From a phage: a stretch of 64,000 nt of DNA. The notes beneath the pieces are model-generated. The model was not told where the DNA came from. It was given only the letters and a program-made list of their open reading frames with translations, and did no database searches. Below are positions 27,563 to 51,862 of the stretch, piece after piece; positions within the stretch are counted from its first letter, which is position 1, and each line of letters begins with the position of its first letter. Both the position numbers and the translations under genes were made by a program. The DNA lies in NCBI GenBank assembly GCA_025812035.1, contig GCA_025812035.1_4719.1. One strand, 5' to 3'.

Positions 27563-27660
27563 TTTGACATCCTCTTATATTGGATTGATTACAGTTATCT
27601 TAAATAGGCGATAAGATATCTTGCTCTTATCACCTTAGTAATATAGCCGTGAAATAAATT
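27563..27660 (-). promoter_or_regulatory. Conserved ~95-bp leader/promoter element, copy 1
   Basis: Minus-strand order: box TTTCACGGCTATATTA (contains -10-like TATATT), a 5'-UTR hairpin, then AATCAATCCAATATAAGAGGATGTCAA-ATG; the same blocks recur at 51772-51862. Confidence 0.55.
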
Positions 27661-27689
27661 GTGTTAACAAGAAATAAAACAGCATAGAA

Positions 27690-27729
27690 CCCTCCTCCCC
27701 CATCCTTCAAGAGGACGGTGGGAAGAGGG
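27690..27729 (-). terminator. C-rich/G-rich imperfect hairpin
   Basis: CCCTCCTCCCCC ... GGTGGGAAGAGGG, 3' of the gene ending 27737. Confidence 0.4.
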
Positions 27730-27736
27730 AGAGAGA

Positions 27737-28138
27737 TTAAATGTCGTGGACGGCAACGCTGTTTAACCAGCAATACAGCTTAACGCGACACGGATACCGC
27801 TTCATTGCAGCAACCATTTCATCGCGTAAACGCTGGTAGATTTCATCCTGGTGTTCACGTTCAATGGGGTAATCAGCCCAACATTCGATCATGACGTCAC
27901 CATTAGTCAGAATCGTCGTACGCATCCTGTCCTGGACACGACGATCTTTCCCAGCATTAGGGAAATACATCCCTTCAGTACGAATAAGGTCGCCGCAGGG
28001 CATGACTAACCATTCGTTCGTTTTGCCGGTATTCTTATAATCCATTACAGCTTGCATTGCGGTGTCAACGCTAAAAGAAACATAATTCCAAACGGGTGTC
28101 CAACGATAGATTGCAGGTTGTTCAAGTGTTTCGTTCAT
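27737..28138 (-). CDS. Hypothetical protein, 133 aa
   Basis: ORF flanked by C-rich/G-rich hairpins. Confidence 0.5.
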   Translation of the reverse strand: MNETLEQPAIYRWTPVWNYVSFSVDTAMQAVMDYKNTGKTNEWLVMPCGDLIRTEGMYFPNAGKDRRVQDRMRTTILTNGDVMIECWADYPIEREHQDEIYQRLRDEMVAAMKRYPCRVKLYCWLNSVAVHDI

Positions 28139-28193
28139 GAGGCGCTTTTCCTATTTTTTATTTTCTGCACAGGATAAATTCAACGGCATAAAG

Positions 28194-28225
28194 CCCTTCC
28201 CTGCCCTTATATGGGGCGGGAAGAG
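28194..28225 (-). terminator. C-rich/G-rich hairpin
   Basis: CCCTTCCCTGCCC-TTATAT-GGGGCGGGAAG, 3' of the gene ending 28354. Confidence 0.4.
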
Positions 28226-28353
28226 TTTATGACCGCAATGAGAATCTCTCACGACAAGCTCACGACGATTATCGCATCACCCCGCGAGTGAGGGAGATCA
28301 GGATCACCTCCTACGTCGTAATGACAGCAATCCTGTTAACGCCGCCTTAGACG

Positions 28354-28992
28354 TTATGCAAAGCGACGCATGTAACCTGCCAGGTAGTTACGTGTATCGA
28401 AGTAGGCAATTTCAGGAATTGCGATATTAAGGTCGATAGCACGGATTTCAACCTGGCGACGGCTTTCATCATAGATCGCATCCATCAGACGCAGTACTGT
28501 CAGGAAAGCCATGCGGGTATGGTAGTCCAGCGGCATGTTATCGATGCCACGATACAGGTAACGATTTGCGTTGAATGCCCCTTCGCTGTTATCTTTCCAG
28601 ATCTTCAGAATATCAGCAAAGGCGGTGCGGAAAACCTCAGGATTATCCACATCCAGTAACGCACGGAAAGCAGACATTAAAGATCGCTGATGACGGATCA
28701 AGGACTGCGGCGTTTGCGGCATGGTCGGACCCATTTCTTCCGCATATTTCTGGAACGGGGCAACCAGGGTTGCGGCGCGAGAAGCAACGATAGAAATAGC
28801 AGGCGATTCATTCACCGCTGGTTTCGCAGGCTTTTCTTCAACTGCGGTTTCCTTCTTCTCAACAACGACCGTTTTCGGTTGTGCTACAACGTTGTTGGTC
28901 GGAGCAGCAGCCGCACCATTTTCCACGGCGGTCTCTACTGCTGTAATCTTTTCGTCCATTTGTGCGGAACGTTGGTCTTTATTCTTGCTCAT
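28354..28992 (-). CDS. Hypothetical protein, 212 aa, low-complexity Ala/Val/Lys/Glu-rich N-terminus
   Basis: ORF; no recognisable motif. Confidence 0.55.
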   Translation of the reverse strand: MSKNKDQRSAQMDEKITAVETAVENGAAAAPTNNVVAQPKTVVVEKKETAVEEKPAKPAVNESPAISIVASRAATLVAPFQKYAEEMGPTMPQTPQSLIRHQRSLMSAFRALLDVDNPEVFRTAFADILKIWKDNSEGAFNANRYLYRGIDNMPLDYHTRMAFLTVLRLMDAIYDESRRQVEIRAIDLNIAIPEIAYFDTRNYLAGYMRRFA

Positions 28993-29017
28993 GTTTATTT
29001 CCTTTCATTTAACAAGG

Positions 29018-30319
29018 TTAACTAATATAAAGTTCAGGATCGTAAGGCGCTAACGATACACTGGCGTTATGCATTGCTTTCATCATAGTGTTCATGAAAA
29101 CGTTGTTTACACCGGTGATCTCTGCCCCGATCGCGTCTGGGGTTGGAGCCATCGCGTTACCGCAACAGGTAGCACAGTATTCCAACGGACCCGCTTTACA
29201 GCGCTGAGGATCGCGTAACTTGATGGTCTGTCCTTCCAAGGAAGCAAGTAAGTCAGCATCAATAAGTTTAAGCGCTGCACCGTCGATCATATAACGTCCG
29301 ACAAGCAGCTTATCTTTGATGTGATCACGGTTCACCGTGAACAGGATATGTTCTTGGGTACCGCAGTCGTCCATCGTGATTTTAAGGTTCTGTGTCGCAC
29401 GTTGTGATTCCTTAGCTGTTTGTCCAGCTAAAGCGGTCAACGCACCACGTGAGAACGAACCAGCACGCGCACTGTTGTTATACTCTGCCCAATGGTCGAC
29501 ACGCATCCCTTCAGCCAGGCTGTGTGTGATAACGTTACGTTTACCAGGGTCAACGAAGTCAGCTTCAACCCCCATCATGATGTGCGTTTTCTTTCGAGTA
29601 TTACCGAAACTCTTGCCAGGGTTAATATAGAACCCTTCCGACTCATCACCCTTAAAGGATTCCTTATCCATTTTGGTTAGCGTGGCCTCGAGTTTGATCA
29701 GTTCTTCAGGTGTGAACTTACCTTCTTCTTGTAGACGTGCTAACTCTTTATCACGATAGGCGATAATATCGTCATCGACCGTTAACGCTTTATCGCTCAT
29801 CGATGGAACAATTAAACGGTTGATGGCGGTTAATGCGCTGATATTGTTGGTGAATTTCTTCACCTCGCTCGCATACAACGGACCAATCGGACGTTCGTTA
29901 GGATCAGGTATCCCCTCTTCAGGATCATCCGCTACGCGTGGTGCAATCAATGATTCCAATGTACCGCTGGTCAACCGTCCCGCCTGGTATTCAATCTGAA
30001 TCCCGAAAGCGTCATAAAGGACGTACATATTGAACAACGCTTCACCGAAGGTTGTGGTGGTTGTGTTCTTAACCGACGGTAGATCACCAGGCGCAAGCTC
30101 CAACGGATCCCAGAAATTCAACAAGGGTTTTGTTGGCTCTGTTTCCCATTGATGTTCTTCACCGTCGATGGTAACCGTAACGATGTTTCCCTGACGACGT
30201 AATTTAGGCTGATACTTCTCAGCGCCACCTTCCGTAAAAGCAAATGCGTCGTTAATCCACTCAAGATAACGGTAGTGCCCTTCACGCAACGCGTAAAGGA
30301 AATAATCACGAGGTGTCAT
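29018..30319 (-). CDS. Hypothetical protein, 433 aa
   Basis: Long ORF; no recognisable motif. Confidence 0.6.
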   Translation of the reverse strand: MTPRDYFLYALREGHYRYLEWINDAFAFTEGGAEKYQPKLRRQGNIVTVTIDGEEHQWETEPTKPLLNFWDPLELAPGDLPSVKNTTTTTFGEALFNMYVLYDAFGIQIEYQAGRLTSGTLESLIAPRVADDPEEGIPDPNERPIGPLYASEVKKFTNNISALTAINRLIVPSMSDKALTVDDDIIAYRDKELARLQEEGKFTPEELIKLEATLTKMDKESFKGDESEGFYINPGKSFGNTRKKTHIMMGVEADFVDPGKRNVITHSLAEGMRVDHWAEYNNSARAGSFSRGALTALAGQTAKESQRATQNLKITMDDCGTQEHILFTVNRDHIKDKLLVGRYMIDGAALKLIDADLLASLEGQTIKLRDPQRCKAGPLEYCATCCGNAMAPTPDAIGAEITGVNNVFMNTMMKAMHNASVSLAPYDPELYIS

Positions 30320-30332
30320 GTAGTAACTCCTT

Positions 30333-31211
30333 TTAAACGTGGGTCAGGTCACCGTGACGTGAAACGAACTCTGATAACGCTCGGATTGCTTCTTTGGATT
30401 CTTCAGCCATCGGGAAGTTGACGGTAACAAGTTCTCGTAAGACAGGAATGATTTCATTGTCTTCGAGATCGGAAGCTAAGGCGAACGCGATCAGTTCTTG
30501 GGCGTATGCGTACGGTTGCTGGCGTAAAGCAGCAAGCTGATTCCGACACTGCGCTATCAGCAGGTCCAGCGGAACCGCTATCGTACCCCCTTCGTCAACA
30601 TATTGGCTGAATACCGGTGGGAATGCATCACTGATTACACGAATTCGTCTGCGAATGCGATCAGGGATCTGGATGTTTTCTTCATCGGCTACGTTTTCGC
30701 TATCTTTCTCCAGCTTCTTGGTCAGCACCTGCTGGATGCGTGGAAGCAGACTTGAATGCACGAAACTGATCAATGGGGTTACGTTAACAGCGTCGACGCC
30801 GTAAATATGTCGTGCGCATTCTGCTAACGCTTCAGCTGCGGTGTAGTCTTCGTCTTCAACGATAGCGAGTAGAAAATCGGTATCGTCATGTGTTTCCAGG
30901 TCTAATAACGTAGACGCTAACGCATGAAGATACTTCAGGCTATCCAGAGATAGTTGCCCTTCGTTAACTCGGATCCCGAAGGCAAGCAATTGTTGTTTAT
31001 AAAGTTCGATACACCCGTTTGTTAAAATGACATCTAATTCGTTTAAATCGTACTGTTCTCCAGCACCTGACAACATTGTACTACAAAACGTTTCCAGTTG
31101 CTCGCATTTAAAATCTTGGTATAAACGATACATGCAGTGCTGTAACAGCGTACGCCTTGTTTCAGGGATTTTACCTTCTAACAAAGCCAAGACGGAATCA
31201 ATCATATCCAC
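30333..31211 (-). CDS. Hypothetical protein, 292 aa
   Basis: Long ORF; first gene of a minus-strand run, divergent from the plus-strand island starting at 31302. Confidence 0.6.
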   Translation of the reverse strand: MDMIDSVLALLEGKIPETRRTLLQHCMYRLYQDFKCEQLETFCSTMLSGAGEQYDLNELDVILTNGCIELYKQQLLAFGIRVNEGQLSLDSLKYLHALASTLLDLETHDDTDFLLAIVEDEDYTAAEALAECARHIYGVDAVNVTPLISFVHSSLLPRIQQVLTKKLEKDSENVADEENIQIPDRIRRRIRVISDAFPPVFSQYVDEGGTIAVPLDLLIAQCRNQLAALRQQPYAYAQELIAFALASDLEDNEIIPVLRELVTVNFPMAEESKEAIRALSEFVSRHGDLTHV

Positions 31212-31301
31212 TCCGATGCGGTAAATGTCTACTAGCTCTCATAATCTATTGAAGAAACTACCGGCTGACGCCAACTTAGATCAATCAGGAGTAACCATCC
31301 C

Positions 31302-31775
31302 ATGCCAGTTTCATCCAAACCAAGAAAAAAATCAGTAGGAAAACCTAAAGCTCAGGAAACAACAGCAATTCGTTGGGACGAGTTACGCGAACCTATCGAA
31401 AACTGCGAATTGTTATTGAGCACCCTGGGTGCGGCTATTTACCAAGCAACGCAACCCTGCCGTTTACGATTAACCCAAAACAAGCGCGATGAGTTCGTTG
31501 CGTTATCAACAAGCACGAATAAAGATCTTACCGAACTTCAAACCGAATTGACGACGATCAAGAACTCCGTCACGCCGATGTACGGTAAAGAAGTTGATGA
31601 ACAAAGTATTCTGTTACAGTACAACTACGGGATGTCGTTAATGAACATCCTGGAACGCGCATCCGATATTCTACGTCCTGACGTCGCACGCCTGAGTCAA
31701 CTGCGTGTTGAAGGGATGGAGAACCAGATCCGATTCGCTAACAGTGTTAAATCTCAAGGAGCCACCGAAGCATGA
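31302..31775 (+). CDS. Hypothetical protein, 157 aa, basic N-terminus
   Basis: ATG after AGGAG; ATGA overlap with the next gene. Confidence 0.55.
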   Translation: MPVSSKPRKKSVGKPKAQETTAIRWDELREPIENCELLLSTLGAAIYQATQPCRLRLTQNKRDEFVALSTSTNKDLTELQTELTTIKNSVTPMYGKEVDEQSILLQYNYGMSLMNILERASDILRPDVARLSQLRVEGMENQIRFANSVKSQGATEA

Positions 31776-33418
31776 GCGAACAAGAAAAAGAAATTGTGAC
31801 GAGCCAGGAAGATAAGGTTGAGGTAACGGCTCAACCTGTTCATGAAGGTAATACTTCTACGCAGCAGGAAAGTAAAGAAGTTGCTGACGCTCCAGAAGCA
31901 ACCCATGAAGAAGAACCGTCACATCCGCCGCTGATCGATTTCTCAAAAGCAACGATACGTTTCCAGTGCGAAGATATTCGCCCTAAGAGCCCAAAGAAAA
32001 CGAAACGTCAACCGCTGCTATTACCGCTCTATTCTCCGCGTGTGCAGACGGAGTACTACGACGAGTATATTAACACAATTTTAGAGACTGTTCACGCTAT
32101 TGTCTCGAATCGTCAGAAACCGTCAGAAGAGCAATTAGAGCAGTTTAATAAAGCCGCAATACAAACAGCCGCTGAGCAGGAATACCGCCCGAATGGTCAA
32201 GCTCACGATCGAGCGCTGGAACGTAAGGGCAGTCAGTGGACCAACGTACCCGTAGACTCATCCGGCGTTGGTCGCGTTATTCCCGGCATTCCACAACCGA
32301 ACCATATTCCTGATGATGTTGAAGCACCACTGACAGGAACGGACGCGATCTATTTCGCTATCCGTAATACGAAATCAGGTGCACCTGCGGTAATGCCGTT
32401 ATGGCACAGCGGTATTAAGCTACAATTCAATCCACCGTCGAATGAACGTGTTGCGATTATGCATGAGCGTATTGCGCGCGATAAAATCCTGGGTGGGCGT
32501 GATAGTGCGGGGTTCCTGTTTTCGGCAACGTCGATTATCACCATGAAGCATGCGATCGAATTAGCATTAGAATGCTGTTACATGGCCAACGTGCCGAATC
32601 TGGACATTCAACGCCTGAAGGACATTATTCCGGTTACCGATGTTCCAGCGTTACTGTTAAACGTGTTGGTAACCATGTATCCGTACGGTTATCCTTACGT
32701 ACAAACCTGTTATCAGAATCCAGAAACATGCGATTATCGTGTTGAAGATATCGTAAGCTTTGCGAAGCTTTATCAAGTTGACAACAGCGCAATTACCAAA
32801 CGTATGCGACAGATCATGACCGAAGGTCCGGTCATGACAGATGAACTTTTGCGTGAGTATGCGAACGAGTTAGGTGAAACCAACTCCCGTACGCTGGATC
32901 TGTCCGACAACGGTTCTGTTATCATCGAACTTGAAGTACCGAAGATCTCACGACAAATCGCCATGGGTGAACGCTGGTTAAGCGATACACTGGAAGATCT
33001 ACGTGATATTCTGTCACGTCCGTCAATGACCGAAGAAGAGCGCGATCGTGTTATTCGTGAACGTCAGTTCTATAGCTGGATGCGCCAGTATGACGCGTGG
33101 ATCAAATCGATGCATGTGTCGGTAAACGGTACCATGCGTCGTGTAAGTGATGCGGATACGGCAACGGTATTAGCACAGCTTTCACGTGACAGCGACCTTC
33201 GTGAGCGCTATATTGACGGACTGATGCAATTCATCGGTGATTCAACCATTGCGCTTGCGGCAATGCCTGCCTGGAAATGTCCGAAATGCAATGCTGATAC
33301 CGCCGATAATCTACGCGACCAGAAATACTACGACCTGATTGCTTTGGATGTACCCCAGCTTTTTTTTACCCTAAACTCCGTCCAATCTCTGCGGGAGGGG
33401 ATGGACGCGGTATTCTAA
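31772..33418 (+). CDS. Hypothetical protein, 548 aa
   Basis: Long ORF; C-terminal CPKC pair; ends just after an 8-T run (~33360-33367) beyond which the -1 frame stays open into the next ORF. Confidence 0.6.
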   Translation: MSEQEKEIVTSQEDKVEVTAQPVHEGNTSTQQESKEVADAPEATHEEEPSHPPLIDFSKATIRFQCEDIRPKSPKKTKRQPLLLPLYSPRVQTEYYDEYINTILETVHAIVSNRQKPSEEQLEQFNKAAIQTAAEQEYRPNGQAHDRALERKGSQWTNVPVDSSGVGRVIPGIPQPNHIPDDVEAPLTGTDAIYFAIRNTKSGAPAVMPLWHSGIKLQFNPPSNERVAIMHERIARDKILGGRDSAGFLFSATSIITMKHAIELALECCYMANVPNLDIQRLKDIIPVTDVPALLLNVLVTMYPYGYPYVQTCYQNPETCDYRVEDIVSFAKLYQVDNSAITKRMRQIMTEGPVMTDELLREYANELGETNSRTLDLSDNGSVIIELEVPKISRQIAMGERWLSDTLEDLRDILSRPSMTEEERDRVIRERQFYSWMRQYDAWIKSMHVSVNGTMRRVSDADTATVLAQLSRDSDLRERYIDGLMQFIGDSTIALAAMPAWKCPKCNADTADNLRDQKYYDLIALDVPQLFFTLNSVQSLREGMDAVF

Positions 33419-33510
33419 TCGATCCGCGATATGGGTTACATGGCGGGCAACTTGTTCGTGACGATGAAAAAATCTGGCAGCTACTGTTAGCGCGTAAAGG
33501 CGACGGCGGC

Positions 33511-33840
33511 ATGAAGCTGAACATCGAAATGGGTATTGCGTACGATACCATGTTCGGTTTGTATGACCGCGTTAACGACTGGACACCGTTGAAATGGGTT
33601 GCCCAGCATCCTGCTGAAGACCCATGGGACAGATTAGGGATTAAACCCTTAATCGAGGATTACGTACGATTCGGTATTAAAGAGTTCATGTCGCTCGACG
33701 CATTTTTAAAAGCACCGTATCCTTATGCGCAAACGGTACTCAAGATCGCACAAGACGAGCTGCGGAAACGCAGTGCTGTATTGGACGACGATGAGGACAA
33801 GTTACGACGAGAAGAAGAACGTTTACGAAACGGAAGATAA
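33511..33840 (+). CDS. Hypothetical protein, 109 aa (possibly the downstream part of a frameshifted product)
   Basis: ORF; its frame is open upstream to ~33310, overlapping the 3' end of the 548-aa gene. Confidence 0.45.
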   Translation: MKLNIEMGIAYDTMFGLYDRVNDWTPLKWVAQHPAEDPWDRLGIKPLIEDYVRFGIKEFMSLDAFLKAPYPYAQTVLKIAQDELRKRSAVLDDDEDKLRREEERLRNGR

Positions 33841-33841
33841 A

Positions 33842-34351
33842 ATGGCGAGATTTACCAGTTTGATTGGGTTGGACATTTGGGAGACACCTGCTGACGTTAG
33901 GGTTATTCCCGTTAACACTGTCGGTGTGATGGGACGTGGTCTTGCGAAGCAGGCAGCCGAGCGTGTGCCCGGTCTTCTTGAAGCGTACCGTAAGCACTGC
34001 TCTGATGGATTTAAGGTGGGCGAAGTCGTATCGTATCAGCACGGCGAGAACGATCAGCTCACCTACGTACTGTTTCCATCGAAATCGGATTGGCGTGAAA
34101 AAACACGACGCGAGTATATCGTTAGCGGCTTACTGGCGTTAAAGGCGTGGTTATTGGAGCTTCAGTTCGAAAGAGATGGCTTCTCATACCGGAGTCCGGC
34201 TGAACCGTTGATCGTAGCGATTCCTCCTGTTGGTTCTGGTTGCGGTAATATCGGTTACGGGCAATCCGAAACAATCCAGCCTCAATGGGTACGCGCACAA
34301 ATCAAACAGTATCTTGCCACCGTACCGAACGTTCATTTCTACTTGTTCTAA
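33842..34351 (+). CDS. Macro-domain-like protein (ADP-ribose binding/processing fold), ~169 aa
   Basis: ORF track 33725..34351; start at MARFTSL after GGAAG and the upstream stop. VIPVNTVGVMGRGLAKQAAERVPG and IAIPPVGSGCGNIGYG resemble the two conserved macro-domain loops. Confidence 0.5.
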   Translation: MARFTSLIGLDIWETPADVRVIPVNTVGVMGRGLAKQAAERVPGLLEAYRKHCSDGFKVGEVVSYQHGENDQLTYVLFPSKSDWREKTRREYIVSGLLALKAWLLELQFERDGFSYRSPAEPLIVAIPPVGSGCGNIGYGQSETIQPQWVRAQIKQYLATVPNVHFYLF

Positions 34352-34367
34352 CGCAAAGGTAACATAA

Positions 34368-34399
34368 CCCTCCTCCAACCCGTAAGGGAAGGAGGAGGG
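34368..34399. terminator. GNRA-loop hairpin, family copy 4, between convergent genes
   Basis: Identical core to copy 3, between the plus macro-domain gene (ends 34351) and the minus gene ending 34417. Confidence 0.65.
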
Positions 34400-34416
34400 A
34401 ATATGCTGTTATGTTA

Positions 34417-34791
34417 TTAATGTTCGTTCCAAATGGCATCTTCCGGTGGGACGATAGGATCTTTCTTCGGCATTGACGGCACTTCATGACGATGCTTACG
34501 GAATTGCCTATCAATAACCTCACGAAGCCGGTACGCGTCAACCCACGTTGATTTATTGAATAACTCCAACGTCACGGTTAATCGCGTTCTTGACATTGAA
34601 TAGCTTTTCTTTGCAATCAAATCGGGATAATTCAGTTGAGCGAACCAGGCACGTATTTGCGCTTCGGTAAAAGCGATGCTGTAATAACTGAGTTTACCAT
34701 CATTAAAATCGTGCGCGTGGGTGTAACGTCCCGCATAACGCCAGACAAGATGCACATTCAGATCGATCCATGGTGGGGTGGTATCAGCCAT
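34417..34791 (-). CDS. Hypothetical protein, 124 aa
   Basis: ORF ending at the bidirectional hairpin ~34368-34399. Confidence 0.5.
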   Translation of the reverse strand: MADTTPPWIDLNVHLVWRYAGRYTHAHDFNDGKLSYYSIAFTEAQIRAWFAQLNYPDLIAKKSYSMSRTRLTVTLELFNKSTWVDAYRLREVIDRQFRKHRHEVPSMPKKDPIVPPEDAIWNEH

Positions 34792-34800
34792 GTGTTACCC

Positions 34801-35370: not shown

Positions 35371-35391
35371 GTAGACACCACCTCCAACGTG

Positions 35392-38004: not shown

Positions 38005-38026
38005 TGAAAACCTCAGCCTTTTAGAA

Positions 38027-38668: not shown

Positions 38669-38770
38669 GGTATTGTCCTATACGTTGACGGTTGAGATGT
38701 CGGATGCCGGATGTGTGTTGTCATCCGGTGGTACGTACAGAAACACCCACAGATAAAACAGTAGCTTCTC

Positions 38771-38793
38771 TAACTTCAATTAAATTGAAGTTA
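38771..38793. promoter_or_regulatory. 23-bp palindrome TAACTTCAATT-A-AATTGAAGTTA overlapping a stop codon
   Basis: Perfect 11-bp inverted arms at the 3' end of the 38780 gene, adjacent to a second hairpin (CCGGATG...CATCCGG). Confidence 0.35.
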
Positions 38794-40045: not shown

Positions 40046-40086
40046 CGGATTTCCTTATATGTTAACGGAAGTGATTTCCATAGTAA

Positions 40087-44021: not shown

Positions 44022-44027
44022 GGCGTT

Positions 44028-44555: not shown

Positions 44556-44667
44556 AAGCGCACCCTCCTCCAACAATCAATTAAAATGCAAAACACCTCG
44601 AAACCAGAGTGCGATTCGAAGCAAGCGTAAACGGCCTGAACGACCGCATAAAATTCCGCGCATATTA

Positions 44668-44701
44668 CCCCCTCTACCCCGACAAAGCGAGGTAGAGGGA
44701 G
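44668..44701 (-). terminator. C-rich/G-rich hairpin
   Basis: CCCTCTACC-(12-nt loop)-GGTAGAGGG, 3' of the LRR fibre gene ending 44712. Confidence 0.5.
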
Positions 44702-44711
44702 AATAATACGA

Positions 44712-46466
44712 TTATGCTGCTACGTATCCAGGCCAACGTTCTCTTGGCCAGTTTGTTGCACCCTGTCCGACGGTGTCTTTACCAGAAATGACGTTACTTA
44801 CATCCCATCCACTCAGATCCTGATTGAATGCGGTGTTCTCGCGCATCATGAGATCGATCTTACGTAGTGAGTGGGTATTCCAACCAGATATGTCTTGGTT
44901 GAATGCTTTATTGTAGGCAAACATGTTAGACACGTTCTGTAATTTTGACGTGTTCCAACCACTGATGTCGCTATTGAACGACGTGCTTGAGAACATGCTG
45001 CTCGCATCAACAAGATTGTCGGTTTTCCAATTAACCACTTTATCGCCGTCAAATGCATTGCTGCTGCTGAACATAAAACTCATATTGCTAGCTTTGGACA
45101 CATCCCATTTATCTAACCCTTTACCGACGAACTCATTACATGCCGAGAACATCCAGCTCATATCGGTAACCCGACTCACGTTCCATTTGCTGAAGTCAAG
45201 GTTAAGTTTCTGACACCCTAAGAAGGTCTTATACATGTTGGTGATGCGACTAACATCCCACTCTTGGATGTTAGGGTCGTTAAGCGTCGTTAAGTAGTTG
45301 AACAATGTCGCTAACGACGTCCATTTCTCTGGAATCCGGTTTGGTACCGTACGAAGCGATGCAAGGTTGTTGGTTGACGGAGAGCAGAACATACCGTTAT
45401 CCCAATTTACGATTTCCGTAATTTTGGACCCTTTGATCGTCTGAGTGGTATTACCATCTTTCACTATACCCGTAGCAACGATGGTATATTCACCGGTGCC
45501 TGCATAATCGTGGGCGTAGGCACCGTTACTTGAGGTCTCCGTTACTTTATTCCCATCACCCCAATCGATATTAACTTTATCCCACCCACTTAGGTTGAAC
45601 TGTACTTTGCCTCCGGTAGCTTTTAGGATGTATTTACCTCCATTGTCGGTAAAATAGCAGACAACCATTGAACCGTACAGATTACCTATCCGCCAATCAT
45701 CCTTTTCTGTCACTGCGATTTGCGCTAAGCCACGCTGTACGAAGAGTACTGTGCGGTTCTCGTCAGTCTGTAATGTGGCTAATGCTTGGGCCTTATCGTC
45801 CTCGCTAATTTCATTAGCGCTCACTAAAACGCTTAACATTCTTTCGAAGTATTCGATGGGTAATTGACGTCCTACAGACTTATCAACCGACGGTTCAGCA
45901 AGATCGCCCAACGCTGCAGTGGTGGCCAGCATCAACGAACCCTTGGTCATATCTGTTTCTTGTAGGTAGTGCAGTCCTGTAATCTGGTACGCTTGAATAA
46001 TCGTAATCAGGTTCAGCGTATCGTTAACGACCTGTACTTGTAAATGTCCAGACCATACGTAGCTGCTTTCGGCAATTGGTAGTTCGACCGACTGGATACC
46101 TGATGTTTCAAAGGTGATCTTCTTGTTAAGATCGGTTTCCAGGAAATCAACAGCGAGGTCAAAATTTATACCGTACTTCTCAGCGATAGAATCCACGATG
46201 TTTCTGAAAGCAACGTCATTATTTACGATGAAACGTAATGGGATTCCTGCAAACGCTCTAGCAATGTCTCGACGAACATACGTGAGCGACTGCTCGAAGA
46301 AATAGGGGCTACCATCTCGCGGTTTAATGGTCACCTGACATACTTCGGGATATTCAGCTGGGATTAACGACACGAATTCAACATCGGATTCTTTCAATGA
46401 AAGCATATTCTTCCGGTTTACTAATGCCAGAAGATCGGCTTTCCAACCAGGATAAACTGTAGACAT
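44712..46466 (-). CDS. Putative receptor-binding protein with BspA/DUF285-type leucine-rich repeats, ~585 aa
   Basis: ORF track 44712..46550; start at MSTVYPGWKAD after GGAG. Shared N-terminal anchor; C-terminal repeats WNVSRVTDMSWMFSAC, WDVSKASNMSFMFSSS, WNTSKLQNVSNMFAYN, WDVSNV. Confidence 0.65.
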   Translation of the reverse strand: MSTVYPGWKADLLALVNRKNMLSLKESDVEFVSLIPAEYPEVCQVTIKPRDGSPYFFEQSLTYVRRDIARAFAGIPLRFIVNNDVAFRNIVDSIAEKYGINFDLAVDFLETDLNKKITFETSGIQSVELPIAESSYVWSGHLQVQVVNDTLNLITIIQAYQITGLHYLQETDMTKGSLMLATTAALGDLAEPSVDKSVGRQLPIEYFERMLSVLVSANEISEDDKAQALATLQTDENRTVLFVQRGLAQIAVTEKDDWRIGNLYGSMVVCYFTDNGGKYILKATGGKVQFNLSGWDKVNIDWGDGNKVTETSSNGAYAHDYAGTGEYTIVATGIVKDGNTTQTIKGSKITEIVNWDNGMFCSPSTNNLASLRTVPNRIPEKWTSLATLFNYLTTLNDPNIQEWDVSRITNMYKTFLGCQKLNLDFSKWNVSRVTDMSWMFSACNEFVGKGLDKWDVSKASNMSFMFSSSNAFDGDKVVNWKTDNLVDASSMFSSTSFNSDISGWNTSKLQNVSNMFAYNKAFNQDISGWNTHSLRKIDLMMRENTAFNQDLSGWDVSNVISGKDTVGQGATNWPRERWPGYVAA

Positions 46467-46620
46467 AAGCACTCCAATCATGGGGCGGTAACCGCACCCA
46501 ACGGTTAAATTGTCGATTATGGTCGTTGCTGATAAGACGACCATAACCAACGATGTTTAATATGTAGTATATTGATATCATGACGTTATGGGGATCTAAG
46601 TCATACCATGGAGACGGCGA

Positions 46621-46671
46621 AAAAAAAAAGAAAATAGGAAAACGGTGTTCATCCTTTTAGGGATGAACACC
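46621..46671 (-). terminator. Rho-independent terminator (hairpin plus U-tract)
   Basis: Minus-strand GGTGTTCATCC-loop-GGATGAACACC followed by T-rich run (plus-strand A-run 46621-46640); 3' of the gene ending 46692. Confidence 0.7.
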
Positions 46672-46691
46672 GCGTACCATTTGTAAGACGA

Positions 46692-47300
46692 TTAACGAGG
46701 AATCAGATCGTTAAGCTCTTCTTCTTCGATAACAAAGAAGCTGTTCTGGTTGTCTAAATCTGATAACAGGACTTGCCCAACAGTGAAGCAAGTTCCACCC
46801 TTCTTAGGCATCCATACCGGCTCATTCGTTACCTTATCAGGATACCATTTGAAACGGTTGGTATCTAAGAAGAACGCAGCTTTGTTCTCCTTGTCGGTAG
46901 AACGATAGCTAACCAGCGCTGGCCACTCAATCCAGGTATTTGTACATGGTACATGTAAAGGATACCATGCGCGCCAGCGCTTACCAGGACGTTTCGGATC
47001 CTCCCAATATTCAGCGGTTAGCACGGCGTTCTTATATTGTTTCTGTACCAGCATCTCAAGAACAGATTCATTACCGATTGGTAAACGCACCAACTCTCTT
47101 TCGACGTGTGATGAATCTAAAGTCACTTCAGCCATATAAAGAGATTTAGGTAATCCAGCCTGTTTTGTGGGTGGTATTACGACACCGGTAACCAACGGTC
47201 TGCTCGGTTTACGTTTCTGTTCTTTCCGATGCGTGTAAAGGAATAACCCTACAGCTACGACAACAAGTATAATAAACAACACTATCTTAATCCAGCTCAT
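46692..47300 (-). CDS. Membrane-anchored protein, 202 aa
   Basis: N-terminal hydrophobic helix IKIVLFIILVVVAVGLFLY then basic stretch; hairpin plus T-run terminator downstream. Confidence 0.55.
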   Translation of the reverse strand: MSWIKIVLFIILVVVAVGLFLYTHRKEQKRKPSRPLVTGVVIPPTKQAGLPKSLYMAEVTLDSSHVERELVRLPIGNESVLEMLVQKQYKNAVLTAEYWEDPKRPGKRWRAWYPLHVPCTNTWIEWPALVSYRSTDKENKAAFFLDTNRFKWYPDKVTNEPVWMPKKGGTCFTVGQVLLSDLDNQNSFFVIEEEELNDLIPR

Positions 47301-48046
47301 TCGTCAATATCTCCTTCTACAAACAGAGTCAATTTGATTTCAGGGTCATAGAACATGGTAATCACACCATCTTGCTCTACTGAACGTTGCGCTGTCCATA
47401 TTAACTGTTCATCCCGAATATCAAATTTATGCCGTTCGTCGCTGACCACAGCTTCCGCATCAACGTAATGGTAAACATCACCAAGAGGATTCTCAATCCA
47501 GCCACGCACCATCAAACGTTCTTTTTGTTTACGTGTGAAGAAGCGATACGGATCTTCGCACGTGCACCATACGTCTCCGCTCTCATTAACCAGCTCATCG
47601 TAAACTTTAGAAAGTTCGTCAGGCACAGGAATCAAAATGTTATCCTGATAGCTCGACCAGAAACGACGTACATCTTGGATTAAATCGTCGCCTTGCAGTT
47701 TAGTTACCGTGTTGCTATGGTCGATCTGAGCAGTATCTATATCAAGACGGGTAAACGGAAGAGCGTCTAGGTTTGCCGCCACGATCTCGATGTCGTCATG
47801 GTGAACATGAACCCACCCGTCAAACCATCGGTACCCGTCAGCTTGATATAACGTTGTATGATATCTGACAACATTGATGTCTTCGAACGAGTCCAATAAA
47901 GCTTTAGCTGCTAGAAGCGGCGAAAAGTTCTTTGATTGTCCTGGCTTACGTATTTCTTCTTTGATGAACAATTTACCAAGAATCGGATGTTCGATAACAA
48001 AACCACAGGAAAGCATGATGCTTCCTTGATAACGTGCTTCTTGCAT
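47297..48046 (-). CDS. Hypothetical protein, 249 aa
   Basis: ORF with ATGA overlap to the downstream gene. Confidence 0.55.
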   Translation of the reverse strand: MQEARYQGSIMLSCGFVIEHPILGKLFIKEEIRKPGQSKNFSPLLAAKALLDSFEDINVVRYHTTLYQADGYRWFDGWVHVHHDDIEIVAANLDALPFTRLDIDTAQIDHSNTVTKLQGDDLIQDVRRFWSSYQDNILIPVPDELSKVYDELVNESGDVWCTCEDPYRFFTRKQKERLMVRGWIENPLGDVYHYVDAEAVVSDERHKFDIRDEQLIWTAQRSVEQDGVITMFYDPEIKLTLFVEGDIDE

Positions 48047-48165
48047 TTTCTATTCCTCAAACAAAAGATTGTCTTTTAACGCGACATGATTACAAGTACA
48101 CAAGTTACTGAATTTCTGTAAAAGTTAATTTTCGTAAAATAAAAGAAAACGTGTCCGTGTTTCCT

Positions 48166-48202
48166 GGTTCTTCCCCTCCACAGCTTCAGGAAGAGAAGAA
48201 CC
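48166..48202 (-). terminator. Intergenic hairpin
   Basis: GGTTCTTC ... GAAGAACC stem, 3' of the gene ending 48223. Confidence 0.45.
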
Positions 48203-48222
48203 GTTTGCTAAGTTGTTATGTA

Positions 48223-48471
48223 TTAAAACGCATTGATTGGGTTGCTCAACGCTTTATCACGGATTTGAATCGCTGCCAGCATTGCTTTCTGGTACGAATC
48301 GTAAGCATCAACAGAAACCGTCAAATCAACCAATTTCTCTAATACGGATTCAGCCGCTTTTACGCGGACGCGGAACTTGGTGATTGCGTTATCTTTGTTA
48401 CGATAAACCGTGATATGGTGCAGCGGTTGAACTTTGGTTTTAACAGATTTAGTTGCTTTGATCGTTTTCAT
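48223..48471 (-). CDS. Hypothetical small basic protein, 82 aa
   Basis: ORF between two hairpins; Lys-rich. Confidence 0.45.
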   Translation of the reverse strand: MKTIKATKSVKTKVQPLHHITVYRNKDNAITKFRVRVKAAESVLEKLVDLTVSVDAYDSYQKAMLAAIQIRDKALSNPINAF

Positions 48472-48525
48472 GATGATTTCCTTCTTTATTAGGATGATTA
48501 CATTTAGTCAGTTTAACAGCATAAA

Positions 48526-48550
48526 CCCTTCCCGCGTAAGGCAGGAAGGG
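48526..48550 (-). terminator. C-rich/G-rich hairpin containing GTAAGG
   Basis: CCCTTCC-CGCGTAAGGCA-GGAAGGG, 3' of the endolysin gene ending 48565. Confidence 0.5.
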
Positions 48551-48564
48551 TATACGGATTTGTT

Positions 48565-49062
48565 TTACGCGTGTCGTCGTTTACCAAAGAAAATATGATT
48601 GTCTACCACGGTGATATTGGTAGCGTGTTTTTTGAAGTGTTTAGGGCGAAGATGTTTCGCGTTAAAGAATACGGCTCCTCGTGTTGGATCGGCTTTACGG
48701 TAAGCAACAATGTCGTTATTGCGCAATGTTGCGACCTCTCGTGCTATTGCTCTTGCTCGCTCAAAAGCAGCATGATCACGTATGACGATTCGTTGTTGTC
48801 TTGCCCAGGGGAATTGACCTCTTTGCAGTACGACGTCTCTGACGTTCGTAGGGAATCGGTAGTCCATAGATCGATTATGTATTAAAAACGCCACGGAGTA
48901 TTGCCCTCTTACAGATTCGCCCCTGGCTTCCATATACACAGCACATGCGACGATCTCTTTCCGGCAATCGATTCTAGGTCCTGCGTTCACCGATGCTTGA
49001 CTGAACGGTGCGATAAGCAACATAACAAGCCCTAAAACCAACGTGTGTAAAATACCTTTCAT
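48565..49062 (-). CDS. Secreted cell-wall hydrolase (SleB family), candidate endolysin, 165 aa
   Basis: Signal peptide MKGILHTLVLGLVMLLIAPFSQA; ACAVYMEARGESVRGQYSVAFLIHNR and VLQRGQFPW match the SleB/CwlJ hydrolase signature. Confidence 0.75.
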   Translation of the reverse strand: MKGILHTLVLGLVMLLIAPFSQASVNAGPRIDCRKEIVACAVYMEARGESVRGQYSVAFLIHNRSMDYRFPTNVRDVVLQRGQFPWARQQRIVIRDHAAFERARAIAREVATLRNNDIVAYRKADPTRGAVFFNAKHLRPKHFKKHATNITVVDNHIFFGKRRHA

Positions 49063-49315
49063 CTTAATAACCTCACGATAAGGTGCTGTCCACTGGCGTC
49101 ATGATAACGCATCCCGTCTATCGGGTTGTTCTATTCAGCGGGCAGCAGGTTAGCGTCAGATGTTTGCCCGACATCCACGACAGAAATAAATGGTACTGAA
49201 AATGCGGTCTCCTCTGGTTTGGCAATAAACATAACGTTGGATAACAGAACCCATTTTCCGCATCCAACGCGGTAAAGGCGTACATCGTTTGAATTCATAT
49301 AGTTTCTCAAAGATG

Positions 49316-49627
49316 TTAACCTCTACCGTCAAGCCATAAGTTGTACTTATCCCGAACGTATGGCTCACGATAAATACGTCGATAGACTTGATGTGGTATA
49401 AACTTGCAATGTACGAGTTCGTCGCTTAATTTCTGACGTCGTTCCATACCGTTGTGTATACGGCGTATCTCCCGGATATTAAAGGTTGTTTTATTCAAGA
49501 GAATAGACATAATGGCAGATCGATGATCTAGATCAAAGATTGACATCAGGCTTCGTATCTCACGTAAAACAACTTCTCTATCGACAAGGATGCGGTTATT
49601 GAACTTAAGATTCTCGGCGATACCCAT
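49316..49627 (-). CDS. Hypothetical protein, ~100 aa (start uncertain)
   Basis: ORF track 49316..49684 overlaps the upstream gene; internal Met chosen; weak support. Confidence 0.3.
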   Translation of the reverse strand: MGIAENLKFNNRILVDREVVLREIRSLMSIFDLDHRSAIMSILLNKTTFNIREIRRIHNGMERRQKLSDELVHCKFIPHQVYRRIYREPYVRDKYNLWLDGRG

Positions 49628-49976
49628 AACCTTCACCTTCGACACGTCGACATGCCGGTAAAAATAAACACCAGCTTGTTGCACTGAGGATCGTCATTGC
49701 GATGATATCTGCGACATCACTTAGTCGAGCACCAGCTTGCCACATGACGAGTATAAAAAGAACGTATGCGAATCCATACCAGACAAACCGTTTGATGTTA
49801 CGTGTCGACCAAGTACAAATATACAAAAGGGGAAGTTGTCCTATAACACTAACGATGTTTCGGATAACATAATAGGCGCGTTCCGTCGTTGCCTCGAAAT
49901 CGATGTTCGTTGCAGAAATCCCAATCAATATAAAAGTGATAAAGCAATAGATTTTTGCGTACGTTTTTAAACTCAT
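49605..49976 (-). CDS. Small multi-pass membrane protein, 123 aa (holin/antiholin candidate)
   Basis: Three or four hydrophobic helices; near the endolysin gene. Confidence 0.5.
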   Translation of the reverse strand: MSLKTYAKIYCFITFILIGISATNIDFEATTERAYYVIRNIVSVIGQLPLLYICTWSTRNIKRFVWYGFAYVLFILVMWQAGARLSDVADIIAMTILSATSWCLFLPACRRVEGEGYGYRRES

Positions 49977-49991
49977 AACTTTTCCCGTTCG

Positions 49992-50225
49992 TTATTTGCG
50001 TTTCCCTATACTCCTCAACAATGTGACGATAACGAATACCGCTGTCATCAAGAAGAGGAACCATAACCCTACGTTAATTCGGGCGGCGGGTTCATCTACC
50101 ATGAAGAACATCGTTCCACAAAACCCAATAACCATCCAGGTTAAGACCATCCCTGTTAATCCCCGTAGTAGCATATGCCCCATCATGAACTCCTTCTTAC
50201 TTTTTCTGATAAAGCGACGATTCAA
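49992..50225 (-). CDS. Small two-helix membrane protein, 77 aa (holin-like)
   Basis: Two hydrophobic helices (LTGMVLTWMVIGFCGTMFF, GLWFLFLMTAVFVIVTLL) and charged C-terminus RSIGKRK. Confidence 0.5.
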   Translation of the reverse strand: MNRRFIRKSKKEFMMGHMLLRGLTGMVLTWMVIGFCGTMFFMVDEPAARINVGLWFLFLMTAVFVIVTLLRSIGKRK

Positions 50226-50359
50226 GTTTTAGAAACATCGCTAACGCGAATGCGATTATTATCGCACGTATCCACATACCTCCTTGACAACTGTTGTACA
50301 ACATAAAGACCAGAGCGATGCCGCCCATATGCAGGCGGCACTTATCGAACAGTGTGGGT

Positions 50360-50587
50360 TTATACATAGGAAATTAATCGTTGAATGATTTTTACTTTGC
50401 CTTTACCTGGGCCTTTCTTGCGACGATTCAACAGACGGATACGGTTTCCAATTACGGAATCGCCATCATAATCAGCACGTAACTGTGGTGGGAGAGCAAG
50501 ATGTTCGCGATTGACACCCGGGTTGTTATAAAAACGATTGAAACTTAAAAGATGGTTAGTTGGAATCATTGTATTGTCCTTATTCAA
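50360..50587 (-). CDS. Hypothetical basic protein, 75 aa
   Basis: ORF; Arg/Lys-rich; no hydrophobic helix. Confidence 0.4.
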   Translation of the reverse strand: MNKDNTMIPTNHLLSFNRFYNNPGVNREHLALPPQLRADYDGDSVIGNRIRLLNRRKKGPGKGKVKIIQRLISYV

Positions 50588-50944
50588 TTATTTACCCAGA
50601 TAGAGATATTCAGCGCCCTGAACAACGCCGGTTGTTGGATCAACCAGTACGCGAACCCGTGCGTAGGTCTTGAAAGAGGGATTGAAAACTTCGAAGTCAG
50701 CCACTTTCAATTTCACGCTAGGGTTGATAGGGTTCTTAACACCCGGAAGTTCTTTCGGTAACCCGAAATCGACTCCATCTTCTTCAAGGTCTGCTGGCGT
50801 CATGTTCTCCATGGCCATGTAGACCGCTTTTGCTTTATCGTAAACTTCTGGGCTATCCAGCAACCCAGCCTGTGCTGAACCGACAACACCACCGAACAGA
50901 ATAGCAACAGCAACAAACAATTTCGCTAACGTTTTCATGATCAT
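50588..50944 (-). CDS. Secreted protein, 118 aa
   Basis: Signal peptide MKTLAKLFVAVAILFGGVVGSAQA. Confidence 0.55.
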   Translation of the reverse strand: MIMKTLAKLFVAVAILFGGVVGSAQAGLLDSPEVYDKAKAVYMAMENMTPADLEEDGVDFGLPKELPGVKNPINPSVKLKVADFEVFNPSFKTYARVRVLVDPTTGVVQGAEYLYLGK

Positions 50945-50973
50945 CTCCTTAAGAGTAAATGGTACAATACTTA

Positions 50974-51396
50974 TTAACGTACGGCAGCAACGCTACCAGC
51001 ACATGCCTGAATATCATCTGTATTTACGATGATGGTTTCGTTAAACGCACGAATACGTGCACGACGTGCTTCTTTAAGGCTAGCAATTGCGTTAGCAGCT
51101 TGATCTGTATTCGCAAGGCTAATAACCGGGATCAAACGCATATCGGGACTGCAGATATTCAATGCTTGGTACACACGTCCGTTAATTCCTACGGTATCAG
51201 ACATCGGATAGTGCGCACGACATTGAAATTGACCCATGACAACAAGCGAACGATCTGAGATACCAATCTGATAACGACCATCTTCACTGTAGGCGTAGCA
51301 GTTTTGACCACGAGCCATCCAGTTAGCTTGTGCTTGTGTGCTAACAAAAGCCAGGGTGGTGACGATAGCAAATACGATATTTTTGAACAGTTTCAT
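50974..51396 (-). CDS. Secreted protein, 140 aa
   Basis: Signal peptide MKLFKNIVFAIVTTLAFVSTQAQA; four Cys. Confidence 0.55.
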   Translation of the reverse strand: MKLFKNIVFAIVTTLAFVSTQAQANWMARGQNCYAYSEDGRYQIGISDRSLVVMGQFQCRAHYPMSDTVGINGRVYQALNICSPDMRLIPVISLANTDQAANAIASLKEARRARIRAFNETIIVNTDDIQACAGSVAAVR

Positions 51397-51420
51397 GATA
51401 GAGATCCTTATTGAAATAAA

Positions 51421-51447
51421 ATCGGTATAAAGCCCCCCATTAGGGGG
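51421..51447 (-). terminator. Short G/C hairpin with flanking T-rich run
   Basis: CCCCCC-ATTA-GGGGG with T-rich minus-strand sequence after it; 3' of the gene ending 51454. Confidence 0.45.
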
Positions 51448-51453
51448 ACCTGA

Positions 51454-51771
51454 TTAGTTTGCACGTAAGAAATGACCCAGAACCGTTACGATTGGGAACA
51501 GTCCTGTGACGGTATTATCACCCGAAAACATCATGTTTGAGCCGTTAACGGTGATGAAGCGGATGTCGGTTGCGGACCCATCAATAGCGACAAAACGCAT
51601 TGAGTTCGGTGGAAGATCCTCAACAACATCCTCGAGGTATTCGCGATTTTCAAAGGCTTCTTTAACACGACGCATGAAACGAATCAAGGTTCCTTCCGCG
51701 TCGGCTTCCAAATGACCTAAGATATCGCGATTGTTGCGAATAGCGAATACAGCCATTTTAAACATACACAT
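51454..51771 (-). CDS. Hypothetical protein, 105 aa, preceded by second copy of the conserved leader
   Basis: ATG with AAGAGGA SD inside the repeated leader (51772-51862). Confidence 0.5.
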   Translation of the reverse strand: MCMFKMAVFAIRNNRDILGHLEADAEGTLIRFMRRVKEAFENREYLEDVVEDLPPNSMRFVAIDGSATDIRFITVNGSNMMFSGDNTVTGLFPIVTVLGHFLRAN

Positions 51772-51862
51772 CTTGACATCCTCTTATATTGGATTGATTG
51801 CTAATAATTCAAGGTGAAGCTAATTACTGCATTGCTTCACCTAGGTAATATAGCCGTGAAAA
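51772..51862 (-). promoter_or_regulatory. Conserved ~95-bp leader/promoter element, copy 2
   Basis: Same TTTCACGGCTATATTA box and identical 27-nt SD-proximal block; the hairpin between them differs in sequence (GGTGAAGC...GCTTCACC) but keeps its position. Confidence 0.55.

Follow-up and report, generated by a model that had tools for sequence, protein, structure and literature searches.

We analysed a 64,000-nucleotide (nt) stretch of phage DNA (GenBank assembly GCA_025812035.1, contig GCA_025812035.1_4719.1; hereafter the window) in which two small genes on the minus strand are preceded by the same leader element, made up of a box, a hairpin, and a 27-nt block next to the start codon. The flanks of both copies are 92 to 95% identical to Escherichia phage vB_EcoM_Goslar, a 237-kb nucleus-forming jumbo phage of the Chimalliviridae that serves as the Escherichia coli host model for nucleus-forming jumbo phages. 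The window is distinct from Goslar and from two further IMG/VR relatives, and both leaders are found in Goslar with a few substitutions each. The features at the two loci, with scores from the position weight matrix (PWM) described below, are as follows:

27679 to 27729, minus strand: terminator of the upstream late gene (Goslar gp76 homologue); context of the promoter, outside the repeat
27628 to 27666, minus strand: predicted early promoter, copy 1 (TAACACAATTTATTTCACGGCTATATTACTAAGGTGATA); PWM score 47.3, core pattern match, TATATTAC at 27638 to 27645
27631, minus strand: predicted transcription start, copy 1; G of the conserved T-G-A, seventh base after TATATTAC
27607 to 27634, minus strand: leader hairpin, copy 1 (GGTGATAAGA-N8-TCTTATCGCC); folding z = -4.4
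27564 to 27590, minus strand: 27-nt block, copy 1, the translation initiation region; exact match
27137 to 27562, minus strand: first gene of the early unit, Goslar gp75 homologue, 141 amino acids (aa); no known family
51835 to 51873, minus strand: predicted early promoter, copy 2 (TAATGCATTAATTTTCACGGCTATATTACCTAGGTGAAG); PWM score 52.4, core pattern match, TATATTAC at 51845 to 51852
51838, minus strand: predicted transcription start, copy 2; placed as for copy 1
51812 to 51842, minus strand: leader hairpin, copy 2 (AGGTGAAGC-N13-GCTTCACCT); folding z = -3.9
51773 to 51799, minus strand: 27-nt block, copy 2, identical to 27564 to 27590; exact match
51454 to 51771, minus strand: first gene after promoter copy 2, Goslar gp105 homologue, 105 aa; no known family

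The box TTTCACGGCTATATTA is exact at 27639 to 27654 and 51846 to 51861 (minus strand), 77 to 92 nt and 75 to 90 nt upstream of the respective start codons, and the identity runs one base longer, to ...TATATTAC. The 27-nt block AATCAATCCAATATAAGAGGATGTCAA is likewise exact in both copies and ends 1 nt before the ATG of each open reading frame (ORF). No match to the block occurred in 100 shuffles, even with three mismatches allowed. The 16-mer box by itself, with up to three mismatches, is not beyond chance in the window (12 of 100 shuffles had at least two matches); the significance of the repeat comes from the two exact copies of the box together with the 27-mer and the genome-wide picture below. 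An earlier note on this DNA had described the same architecture at both genes, with a hairpin of different sequence but kept position in each leader and unrelated coding sequences downstream. All of this holds: both leaders fold as described, and BLASTP gave no alignment between the two proteins at E ≤ 100.

Promoter copy 2 begins 7 nt past the stop codon of the upstream gene. Upstream of copy 1, the terminator consists of a C-rich/G-rich hairpin (27690 to 27729) followed by TTCTATGCTGT (27679 to 27689). This tail fits the terminator motif conserved in phiKZ, ...GGGRRGGB-YTTATKYYGT (PMC10914365), at 9 of 10 positions. A GGG-(C/T)TTATGCYGT tail is also present upstream of several Goslar boxes, and this type of terminator seems to be conserved across chimalliviruses.

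Promoter sites across the Goslar genome

With a few mismatches, the 17-mer box recurs upstream of Goslar gp4, gp21, gp40, gp46, gp75, gp105, gp159, gp175, gp182, gp189 (ChmA), gp221, and gp236, and all ten TATATTAC octamers of the whole genome are on the minus strand. Conservation in the aligned sites reaches ~39 nt, TAAyNCA-N5-TTTCACGrCTAyATTAC-yTNNrTGA. A full 39-nt PWM built from these 12 sites and applied with a 12-bit cutoff recovered these 12 and no others in Goslar; every one is on the minus strand and scores above 42 bits, and the range from 12 to 42 bits is empty. In the window, copies 1 and 2 were the sole sites to reach the cutoff. A softer PWM still set the 12 Goslar sites well apart (at least 26.5 bits) and added core-only variants upstream of gp165 and gp210. 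The core pattern YTAYATWACYW-N3-BGR had 14 matches in Goslar, each on the minus strand and upstream of a gene, compared to 0.5 expected from shuffles, and its two matches in the window are the two copies. The dinucleotide T-G occupies positions 6 and 7 after TATATTAC at every one of the 12 full-consensus sites and at 13 of 14 core sites, the exception being G-G at 151619, and it is present in both window sites as well.

The genome-wide search for the box proposed in the earlier note thus yielded 14 co-oriented core sites in Goslar, so the promoter part is not an isolated duplication, and only two sites lie in the window because the window covers only ~64 kb of the genome. The element was first described as ~95 bp long; that a repeated unit exists stands, but the unit shared by the class is the ~39-nt promoter and not the whole ~95 bp. 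The best sub-threshold promoter-like match in the window, TTACAGGACTGCACTACCTACAAGA at 45958 to 45982 (minus strand; 18.9 bits), is inside ORF 44712 to 46550, lacks TATATTAC, and is probably nonfunctional.

A near-identical promoter, TTTCACGTCTATATTACTTGGGTGA, followed by a small hairpin, was found in uncultured phage contigs of ~214 to 228 kb from IMG/VR: L013 (8083 to 8107), L018, L031, and L036, the last with a second core site 1.9 kb downstream. In L013, the sole contig of these to be analysed, proteins are 23 to 25% identical to Goslar gp39 and gp41, and a DNA search of this ~224-kb contig against the phage collection gave no match; its relationship to Goslar is drawn from these weak protein matches. 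Since the promoter is present in such distant contigs, its specificity appears to be old. Separately, three Logan contigs (L063, L066, and L067) start at the promoter box and a fourth (L065) starts at the 27-nt block. Because assemblers break at intragenomic repeats, these ends are an independent sign that box and block are repeated in those genomes too.

Polymerase class and early expression

Every jumbo phage that encodes RNA polymerase (RNAP) has a bioinformatically detectable early motif of ~10 nt, AT-rich, highly conserved, and centred near -10; in phiKZ-type phages this motif is read by the injected virion RNAP, while middle and late promoters are not predictable in the same way (PMC7598289). 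The early consensus of AR9 is AAATATATATTAT-(6N)-G+1, and the transcription start sites (TSSs) of phiKZ and phiR1-37 lie 6 nt downstream of the consensus (PMC5312081). PHIKZ054 has a primary TSS with the early motif (PMC8244752). In the 50 kb of phiKZ that we read, there are seven plus-strand copies of TATATTAC and one minus-strand copy, and the octamer ranks among the most frequent intergenic 8-mers. Five of the phiKZ sites are in promoter-like contexts upstream of genes, with the form ...TTT(G/C)AGAT(T/C)TATATTAC-N5-T-G; all five share the T-G at positions 6 and 7, and the core CTATATTAC is identical at phiKZ 34584, 45568, 51715, 57984, and 70339. The promoter of the phiKZ nuclear-shell gene gp54, GAAAAAAATTTGAGATTTATATTACTAAATTGAAT, can be nearly superimposed over ~35 nt on that of Goslar ChmA (gp189), GAAAAAAATTTCAGGGTTATATTACCTAGGTGAAT, and both contain TATATTAC-N5-T-G.

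Given the shared core, the alignment of the shell-gene promoters, and the published early motif, the Goslar box and the phiKZ early promoter are elements of one kind. We therefore interpret the box as the core of the early promoter of Goslar-group phages with a lineage-specific upstream half, which is a known kind of signal and not a new mechanism, and we put the probability of this reading at roughly 0.7. By analogy with phiKZ-type phages, the reader of the box is most likely the virion RNAP, and transcription most likely starts at the conserved G, 7 bases downstream of TATATTAC. The early promoters of phiKZ, 201phi2-1, phiR1-37, and AR9 likewise have a long conserved motif with an AT-rich, -10-like core (PMC7598289, PMC5312081, PMC8244752, PMC11512511). 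The Goslar core TATATTAC equals the phiKZ core exactly, and the AR9 version is TATATTAT-(6N)-G+1. Also common to phiKZ-type and Goslar promoters are the T-G 6 to 7 nt downstream, a T-rich/A-rich element further upstream, and a copy number of dozens or fewer, co-oriented with early operons; both phiKZ and Goslar have a copy at the shell gene. The upstream half (TTTCACGrC and TAAyNCA) is confined to the Goslar group, the 12 to 14 copies in Goslar compare with ~32 in phiKZ, and a stem-loop at the predicted 5' end is present at about half of the Goslar promoters, whereas none was seen at the five phiKZ sites inspected. We found no published promoter consensus or TSS map for Goslar in the literature searched, and a search for the bare string TATATTAC returned unrelated papers only.

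Published RNA sequencing (RNA-seq) data bear on the timing of these promoters. Armbruster et al. sequenced RNA from Goslar infections halted at the early infection vesicle by ChmA knockdown, and the knockdown transcriptome was reported to match 5 to 20 min of wild-type infection (10.1101/2023.09.20.558163). We used the log2 fold change (log2FC) of knockdown versus control from their Sup. Table 2 (10.1101/2023.09.20.558163), which gives expression classes rather than mapped TSSs. Two classes can be told apart, one expressed, with log2FC of ~0 to +1.3, and one late, with ~-3 to -8. All 14 sites (12 full-consensus and two core-only) precede genes of the expressed class, and the step across the box is usually sharp:

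gp5 to gp4: -7 to +1.3
gp22 to gp21: -5 to +1.2; gp21 to gp14 all ~+1
gp41 to gp40: -4 to +0.95
gp48 to gp47-46: -3.2 to ~+1.1
gp76 to gp75 (copy 1): -4.5 to -6.1 before the box, +1.05 to +1.17 after it; gp75 to gp70 all +1.0 to +1.3
gp106 to gp105 (copy 2): +0.1 to +1.0; gp105 to gp94 ~+0.5 to +1.5, mostly ~+1
gp160 to gp159: -5 to +1.0
gp176 to gp175: -0.5 to +0.9
gp182: +1.3, then gp181 at -1.1
gp191 to ChmA: -1.1 to +0.95
gp222 to gp221: -4 to +1.0
gp236 and gp235: +0.5, flanked by late genes

Expression at the vesicle stage lends indirect support to the use of these promoters by an injected polymerase that would act independently of host RNAP and of new protein synthesis. The suggestion of a phage-specific promoter of a temporal class, made before any genome-wide comparison, is supported by the 14 co-oriented sites, the phiKZ core with its T-G, and the vesicle-stage RNA-seq.

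Leader hairpins and the 27-nt block

When the 50 nt after TATATTAC were folded, the mean z-score was -2.2 relative to shuffles, and the hairpin mostly started 3 to 7 nt past the octamer. A perfect stem of at least 5 bp from the predicted +1 or +2 was found at 6 of 12 Goslar promoters, compared to 8% of control positions starting with GA (binomial P = 1.5e-4), and three more promoters had imperfect stems. The structured leader that the earlier note had proposed is in this sense a feature of the promoter class, as a hairpin enriched at the predicted 5' end. In the window, the core stem of copy 1 is GATAAGA/TCTTATC (27625 to 27631 and 27610 to 27616), with the loop GCAAGATA, and is extended to GGT/GCC. 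The 5' arm of the copy 2 hairpin starts 4 nt upstream of the predicted +1, and its loop is 13 nt long. Among 12 related gp75 leaders, the stem arms are 100% and 96% identical, compared to 62% for the loop and 71% for third positions of the coding sequence (CDS), and the single change in the arms retains a G-U pair. Among 10 related gp105 leaders, neither 8-nt arm varies, and identity is 81% in the loop and 83.5% at CDS third positions. Since the arms are invariant or nearly so and the loops drift at about the synonymous rate, the stems appear to be under selection as stems.

Stem-loops at the extreme 5' end stabilise mRNA in the E. coli ompA 5' untranslated region (UTR) and in the gene 10 transcript of phage T7. 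Like the Goslar leaders, these stabilisers combine a short hairpin at the 5' end with an unstructured ribosome-binding region downstream and have a gene-specific sequence, although several Goslar stems differ in reaching upstream of the predicted +1. By this likeness, the leader hairpin may act as a 5'-terminal stabiliser. A riboswitch-like leader is not supported: when the whole leaders were folded, nothing other than the 5' hairpin stood out as significant structure (z = -1.2 and 0.0). A search of the whole window against Rfam 15 returned nothing at the gathering threshold, and the two leaders had only chance-level matches (E ≥ 0.1, far below gathering).

Two relatives carry a two-hairpin module of ~40 to 50 nt in the gp75 leader: L008 (IMGVR_UViG_3300011560_000001, 4380 to 4435) and L075 (OGZS01000006.1). 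The module lies exactly between TATATTAC and the CTTAGTGA start region, and start-region sequence is duplicated at both of its ends. In L075 the module is similar to the Goslar gp236 leader (Goslar 226,640 to 226,690). These arrangements look as if small structured modules had been inserted or swapped at the start site of the promoter.

The 27-nt block spans -28 to -2 and consists of the A/C-rich AATCAATCCAATAT, the Shine-Dalgarno sequence AAGAGGA, and a 6- to 7-nt spacer. Because Shine-Dalgarno sequences of the AGAGGA/GAGGAT type are common among other Goslar leaders, what sets the block apart is the upstream AATCAATCCAATAT. A scan of the whole Goslar genome found the block at gp75 and gp105 only, even with six mismatches allowed. 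We gathered the leaders of relatives from ~17 independent sources (IMG/VR, Logan, ENA and NCBI assemblies, and JGI metagenomes), and in these the block is confined to the leaders of gp75 or gp105 homologues; when IMG/VR and JGI metagenomes were scanned for the exact pattern, no third gene with it appeared. As part of the promoter class, which is how it had first been described, the block does not hold up. It is private to these two genes and so, by the refuting condition that the earlier note had set, a two-copy element, although one that is conserved in ~17 related sources. Its identity among gp75 homologues is 92%, compared to 71% at CDS third positions, and the gp75 leader is ~90% identical where the protein is 56 to 77% identical and the first codons are wholly different. 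Within genomes, the two copies are identical at 27 of 27 positions in the window and in ERZ1026852, at 26 in IMGVR_3300011560, at 25 in Goslar, and at 22 in JACXXQ010000003. Both Goslar copies read AAAAGG where both window copies read AAGAGG, and this shared G-to-A change, although a single event, hints at gene conversion or co-selection. The block is probably a leader cassette that was copied between two early promoters and has since been kept by selection as a translation initiation region. An upstream ORF from the ATG within GGATG was discarded as a candidate, as this ATG is directly against the Shine-Dalgarno sequence and out of frame.

Alternatives, neighbouring genes, and significance

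In principle, E. coli RNAP could read the box as a sigma-70 early promoter of the host type, TTAACA-16-TATATT, as it does T4 early promoters. A sigma-70 scan did return TTAACA and TATATT 16 nt apart at copy 1 (10 of 12 matches), and the -10-like TATATT had been pointed out before. However, the scan returned nothing at copy 2, and one match, as at copy 1, is no more than shuffles yield (mean 1.1). The strongest conservation falls in the spacer TTTCACGrC and the start region yTNNrTGA, which are unconserved in sigma-70 promoters, so that neither window box shows the sigma-70 arrangement of hexamers 16 to 18 nt apart with an unconserved spacer. The motif is also common to phiKZ early promoters, the downstream genes are expressed from DNA inside the early infection vesicle, and phiKZ infection withstands rifampicin, an inhibitor of host RNAP (PMC4666361). 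We consider a host promoter extremely unlikely, and the TATATT appears to belong instead to the phage RNAP promoter. For the hairpin, a promoter-proximal attenuator or terminator, producing an abundant short 5' RNA with occasional read-through, has a precedent in some phiKZ 5' UTRs, where >90% of transcripts stop at a terminator and yield RNAs of ~71 nt and 141 nt (PMC10914365), and L008 and L075 do have extra hairpins between promoter and leader. The phiKZ elements resemble those described here in that a structured element comes right after a phage promoter, but terminator features were not found in the two leaders: a terminator scan of both gave none, and the stems are A/U-rich (GAUAAGA and GAAGC), with neither a U-run nor the phiKZ-type TTAT(G)YYGT tail of this phage's genuine terminators. 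The downstream genes are moreover expressed at levels like those of their neighbours, and attenuation is in our view very unlikely. Slightly less probable still is a role of the hairpin as DNA, in which a stem-loop extruded around the start would aid or modulate initiation by the virion polymerase, loosely as in phage N4. N4 has a single-subunit virion polymerase whose recognition element is a 5- to 7-bp stem with a 3-nt loop upstream of +1. As proposed for Goslar, the N4 virion polymerase is injected, and its early promoters are associated with a short inverted repeat. Complementarity does run through conserved bases upstream of the predicted +1 in copy 2, window copy 1, Goslar gp236, and the L008 insertion; such bases would be absent from the RNA if transcription starts at G+1, and the 3'-arm bases ACC that pair with them are invariant in 10 gp105 leaders. 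In Goslar, by contrast, a linear motif is the conserved recognition element. Its hairpins begin around the predicted +1 or lie beyond it (those of N4 being upstream), and they are variable and dispensable. Stem sequence, stem length, and loop (3 to 13 nt) vary by gene, unlike in a polymerase recognition element, and about a third of the Goslar promoters and the inspected phiKZ sites are hairpin-free, so these sites do not fit the N4 type of hairpin promoter.

Two further explanations concern the 27-nt block. It might be an operator for a shared posttranscriptional regulator that coregulates translation of just these two genes, for instance a small RNA or an RNA-binding protein of the phage or the host. 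Such a regulator would be consistent with 27 identical nt over the ribosome-binding site at just these two genes in ~17 sources, with conservation above that of synonymous sites in gp75 lineages, and with the AAAAGG found in both Goslar copies. The Goslar gp182 leader also contains CCTTATATTGGA (Goslar 165,985 to 166,000; L006), an 11-nt complement of the block's TCCAATATAAG(A)GG that is conserved in three genomes, with L043 and L045 among them. Yet the match may be coincidental, because the complement doubles as the 3' arm of a local hairpin. No outlier emerged when duplexes were scanned across the Goslar genome (the best non-self duplex was ~-25 kcal/mol among 59,318 windows), the copies in JACXXQ010000003 differ at 5 of 27 positions, and no candidate regulator was found; an operator is therefore unlikely. 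Alternatively, the shared leader could be a mere footprint of recombination between dispersed promoter cassettes, with no more function than an ordinary ribosome-binding site has. The promoters form 25- to 39-nt direct repeats dispersed among variable small genes, the stretch below copy 1 (22183 to 25917) is rearranged relative to Goslar, and leader modules do move between promoters, as in the gp75 leader of L075 with its two-hairpin module like that of Goslar gp236. T4-type phages shuffle genes via promoter/stem-loop cassettes, the PeSLs (PMC2839356, PMC4122927), which are likewise short, dispersed, co-oriented repeats beside small nonessential genes; both kinds are plausible substrates for modular shuffling, and Goslar-group relatives do show leader modules in differing combinations. 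A PeSL, in contrast, joins a sigma-70 promoter to a terminator stem-loop, whereas here the promoter is of the phage-polymerase type, and its stem-loop follows the start and does not resemble a terminator. Neither a mini-circle nor a deletion between copies, nor any other recombination product, was seen. Neutral decay of a duplication does not leave all 27 nt identical beside a hairpin region that is ~50% different, and the block is at 92% where synonymous sites are at 71%. We regard recombination as the whole explanation as rather unlikely.

Several observations weigh against an early promoter of the virion polymerase with a selected 5' hairpin and block. The TSS and the polymerase are assigned by analogy, and a published remark on a Goslar "TSS sequence" from 91 nt upstream of chmA, which is ambiguous, would if taken literally place the start just upstream of the box (10.1101/2023.09.20.558163). 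The stems in copy 2, window copy 1, and some other leaders include 3 to 6 bases upstream of the predicted +1, and a G+1 start cuts the copy 2 hairpin to 5 bp, at which length it is lost from the minimum-energy fold. Transcription may start further upstream or be heterogeneous at such promoters, or these stems may have a role at the DNA level. Compensatory covariation in the stems is zero, because the stems do not vary, and the support for pairing comes from the stem-versus-loop contrast alone. Four of the 12 Goslar promoters lack a convincing hairpin and the five inspected phiKZ sites show none, so the hairpin is not required for promoter function. The gp105 block is barely more conserved than synonymous sites (88% versus 83.5% in 10 relatives), and gp75 and gp105 mRNA levels are unremarkable.

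The promoters head regions of small, variable genes. Neither the gp75 nor the gp105 homologue belongs to a Pfam or PHROG family. The AlphaFold model of the gp75 homologue (predicted local distance difference test [pLDDT] score of 85; predicted template modeling [pTM] score of 0.79) has an alpha/beta fold with two beta-sheets and had no PDB or viral fold match, the best TM-score being 0.39, to another Goslar protein of 163 aa. The protein may have a fold specific to this lineage, with paralogues encoded in its own early unit. The gp105 homologue model was too poor for a fold search (pLDDT of 45), and family and fold searches gave no functional link between the two proteins.

Elsewhere in the window, 44723 to 46624 and 22183 to 25917 have little or no megablast match to Goslar. 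The former is in the tail-fibre region, where a 612-aa ORF replaces Goslar gp92/gp93; the latter contains the small early genes downstream of promoter copy 1, rearranged relative to Goslar and with diverged paralogues. At 21831 to 21854, the window joins Goslar positions 81182 and 82967 and lacks a ~1.8-kb Goslar segment with the NUMOD1/HNH homing-endonuclease gene gp69, which in Goslar is next after the DNA polymerase fragment gp68. The polymerase ORF (20339 to 22090, plus strand) is unbroken in the window, at 583 aa compared to 499 aa in Goslar, and is an endonuclease-free allele.

Under the early-promoter reading, a multisubunit RNAP packaged in the virion and injected with the DNA would read the box, with TATATTAC as a -10-like element. 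The two window copies would start or boost early transcription of the blocks homologous to gp75 to gp70 and gp105 to gp94, which are made up of small accessory genes. The RNA would begin with, or very near, the gene-specific stem-loop, which may protect it against 5'-end-dependent decay in the host cytoplasm. The block would serve as the ribosome-binding region, with its unstructured A/C-rich stretch, AAGAGGA, and 6- to 7-nt spacer, and sharing it could give both first genes equal efficiency of translation start and possibly equal posttranscriptional control. A more elaborate proposal, which we rate as distinctly unlikely, is that the start-straddling stem-loop and the private block form a dedicated control module of a two-gene early regulon in Goslar-group phages. 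In one version, a DNA or nascent-RNA hairpin would gate initiation or escape of the virion polymerase inside the vesicle; in another, the leader would be recognised by a phage factor for the export, stability, or translation of particular early mRNAs. If this were true, the inserted two-hairpin modules would be mobile regulators of early promoters.

The 5' hairpin and the shared block offer modest leads on how early mRNAs made in the vesicle survive and are translated in the host cytoplasm, and they imply no new principle. The 39-nt consensus, with its 14 instances in Goslar, allows direct annotation of early transcription units, and it can also serve the design of reporters and of in vitro templates for the virion polymerase and the reading of published RNA-seq data. 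The specificity TATATTAC-N5-TG of the virion polymerase would have held over deep divergence, reaching from Goslar-group phages to phiKZ and to distant uncultured phages of ~220 kb.

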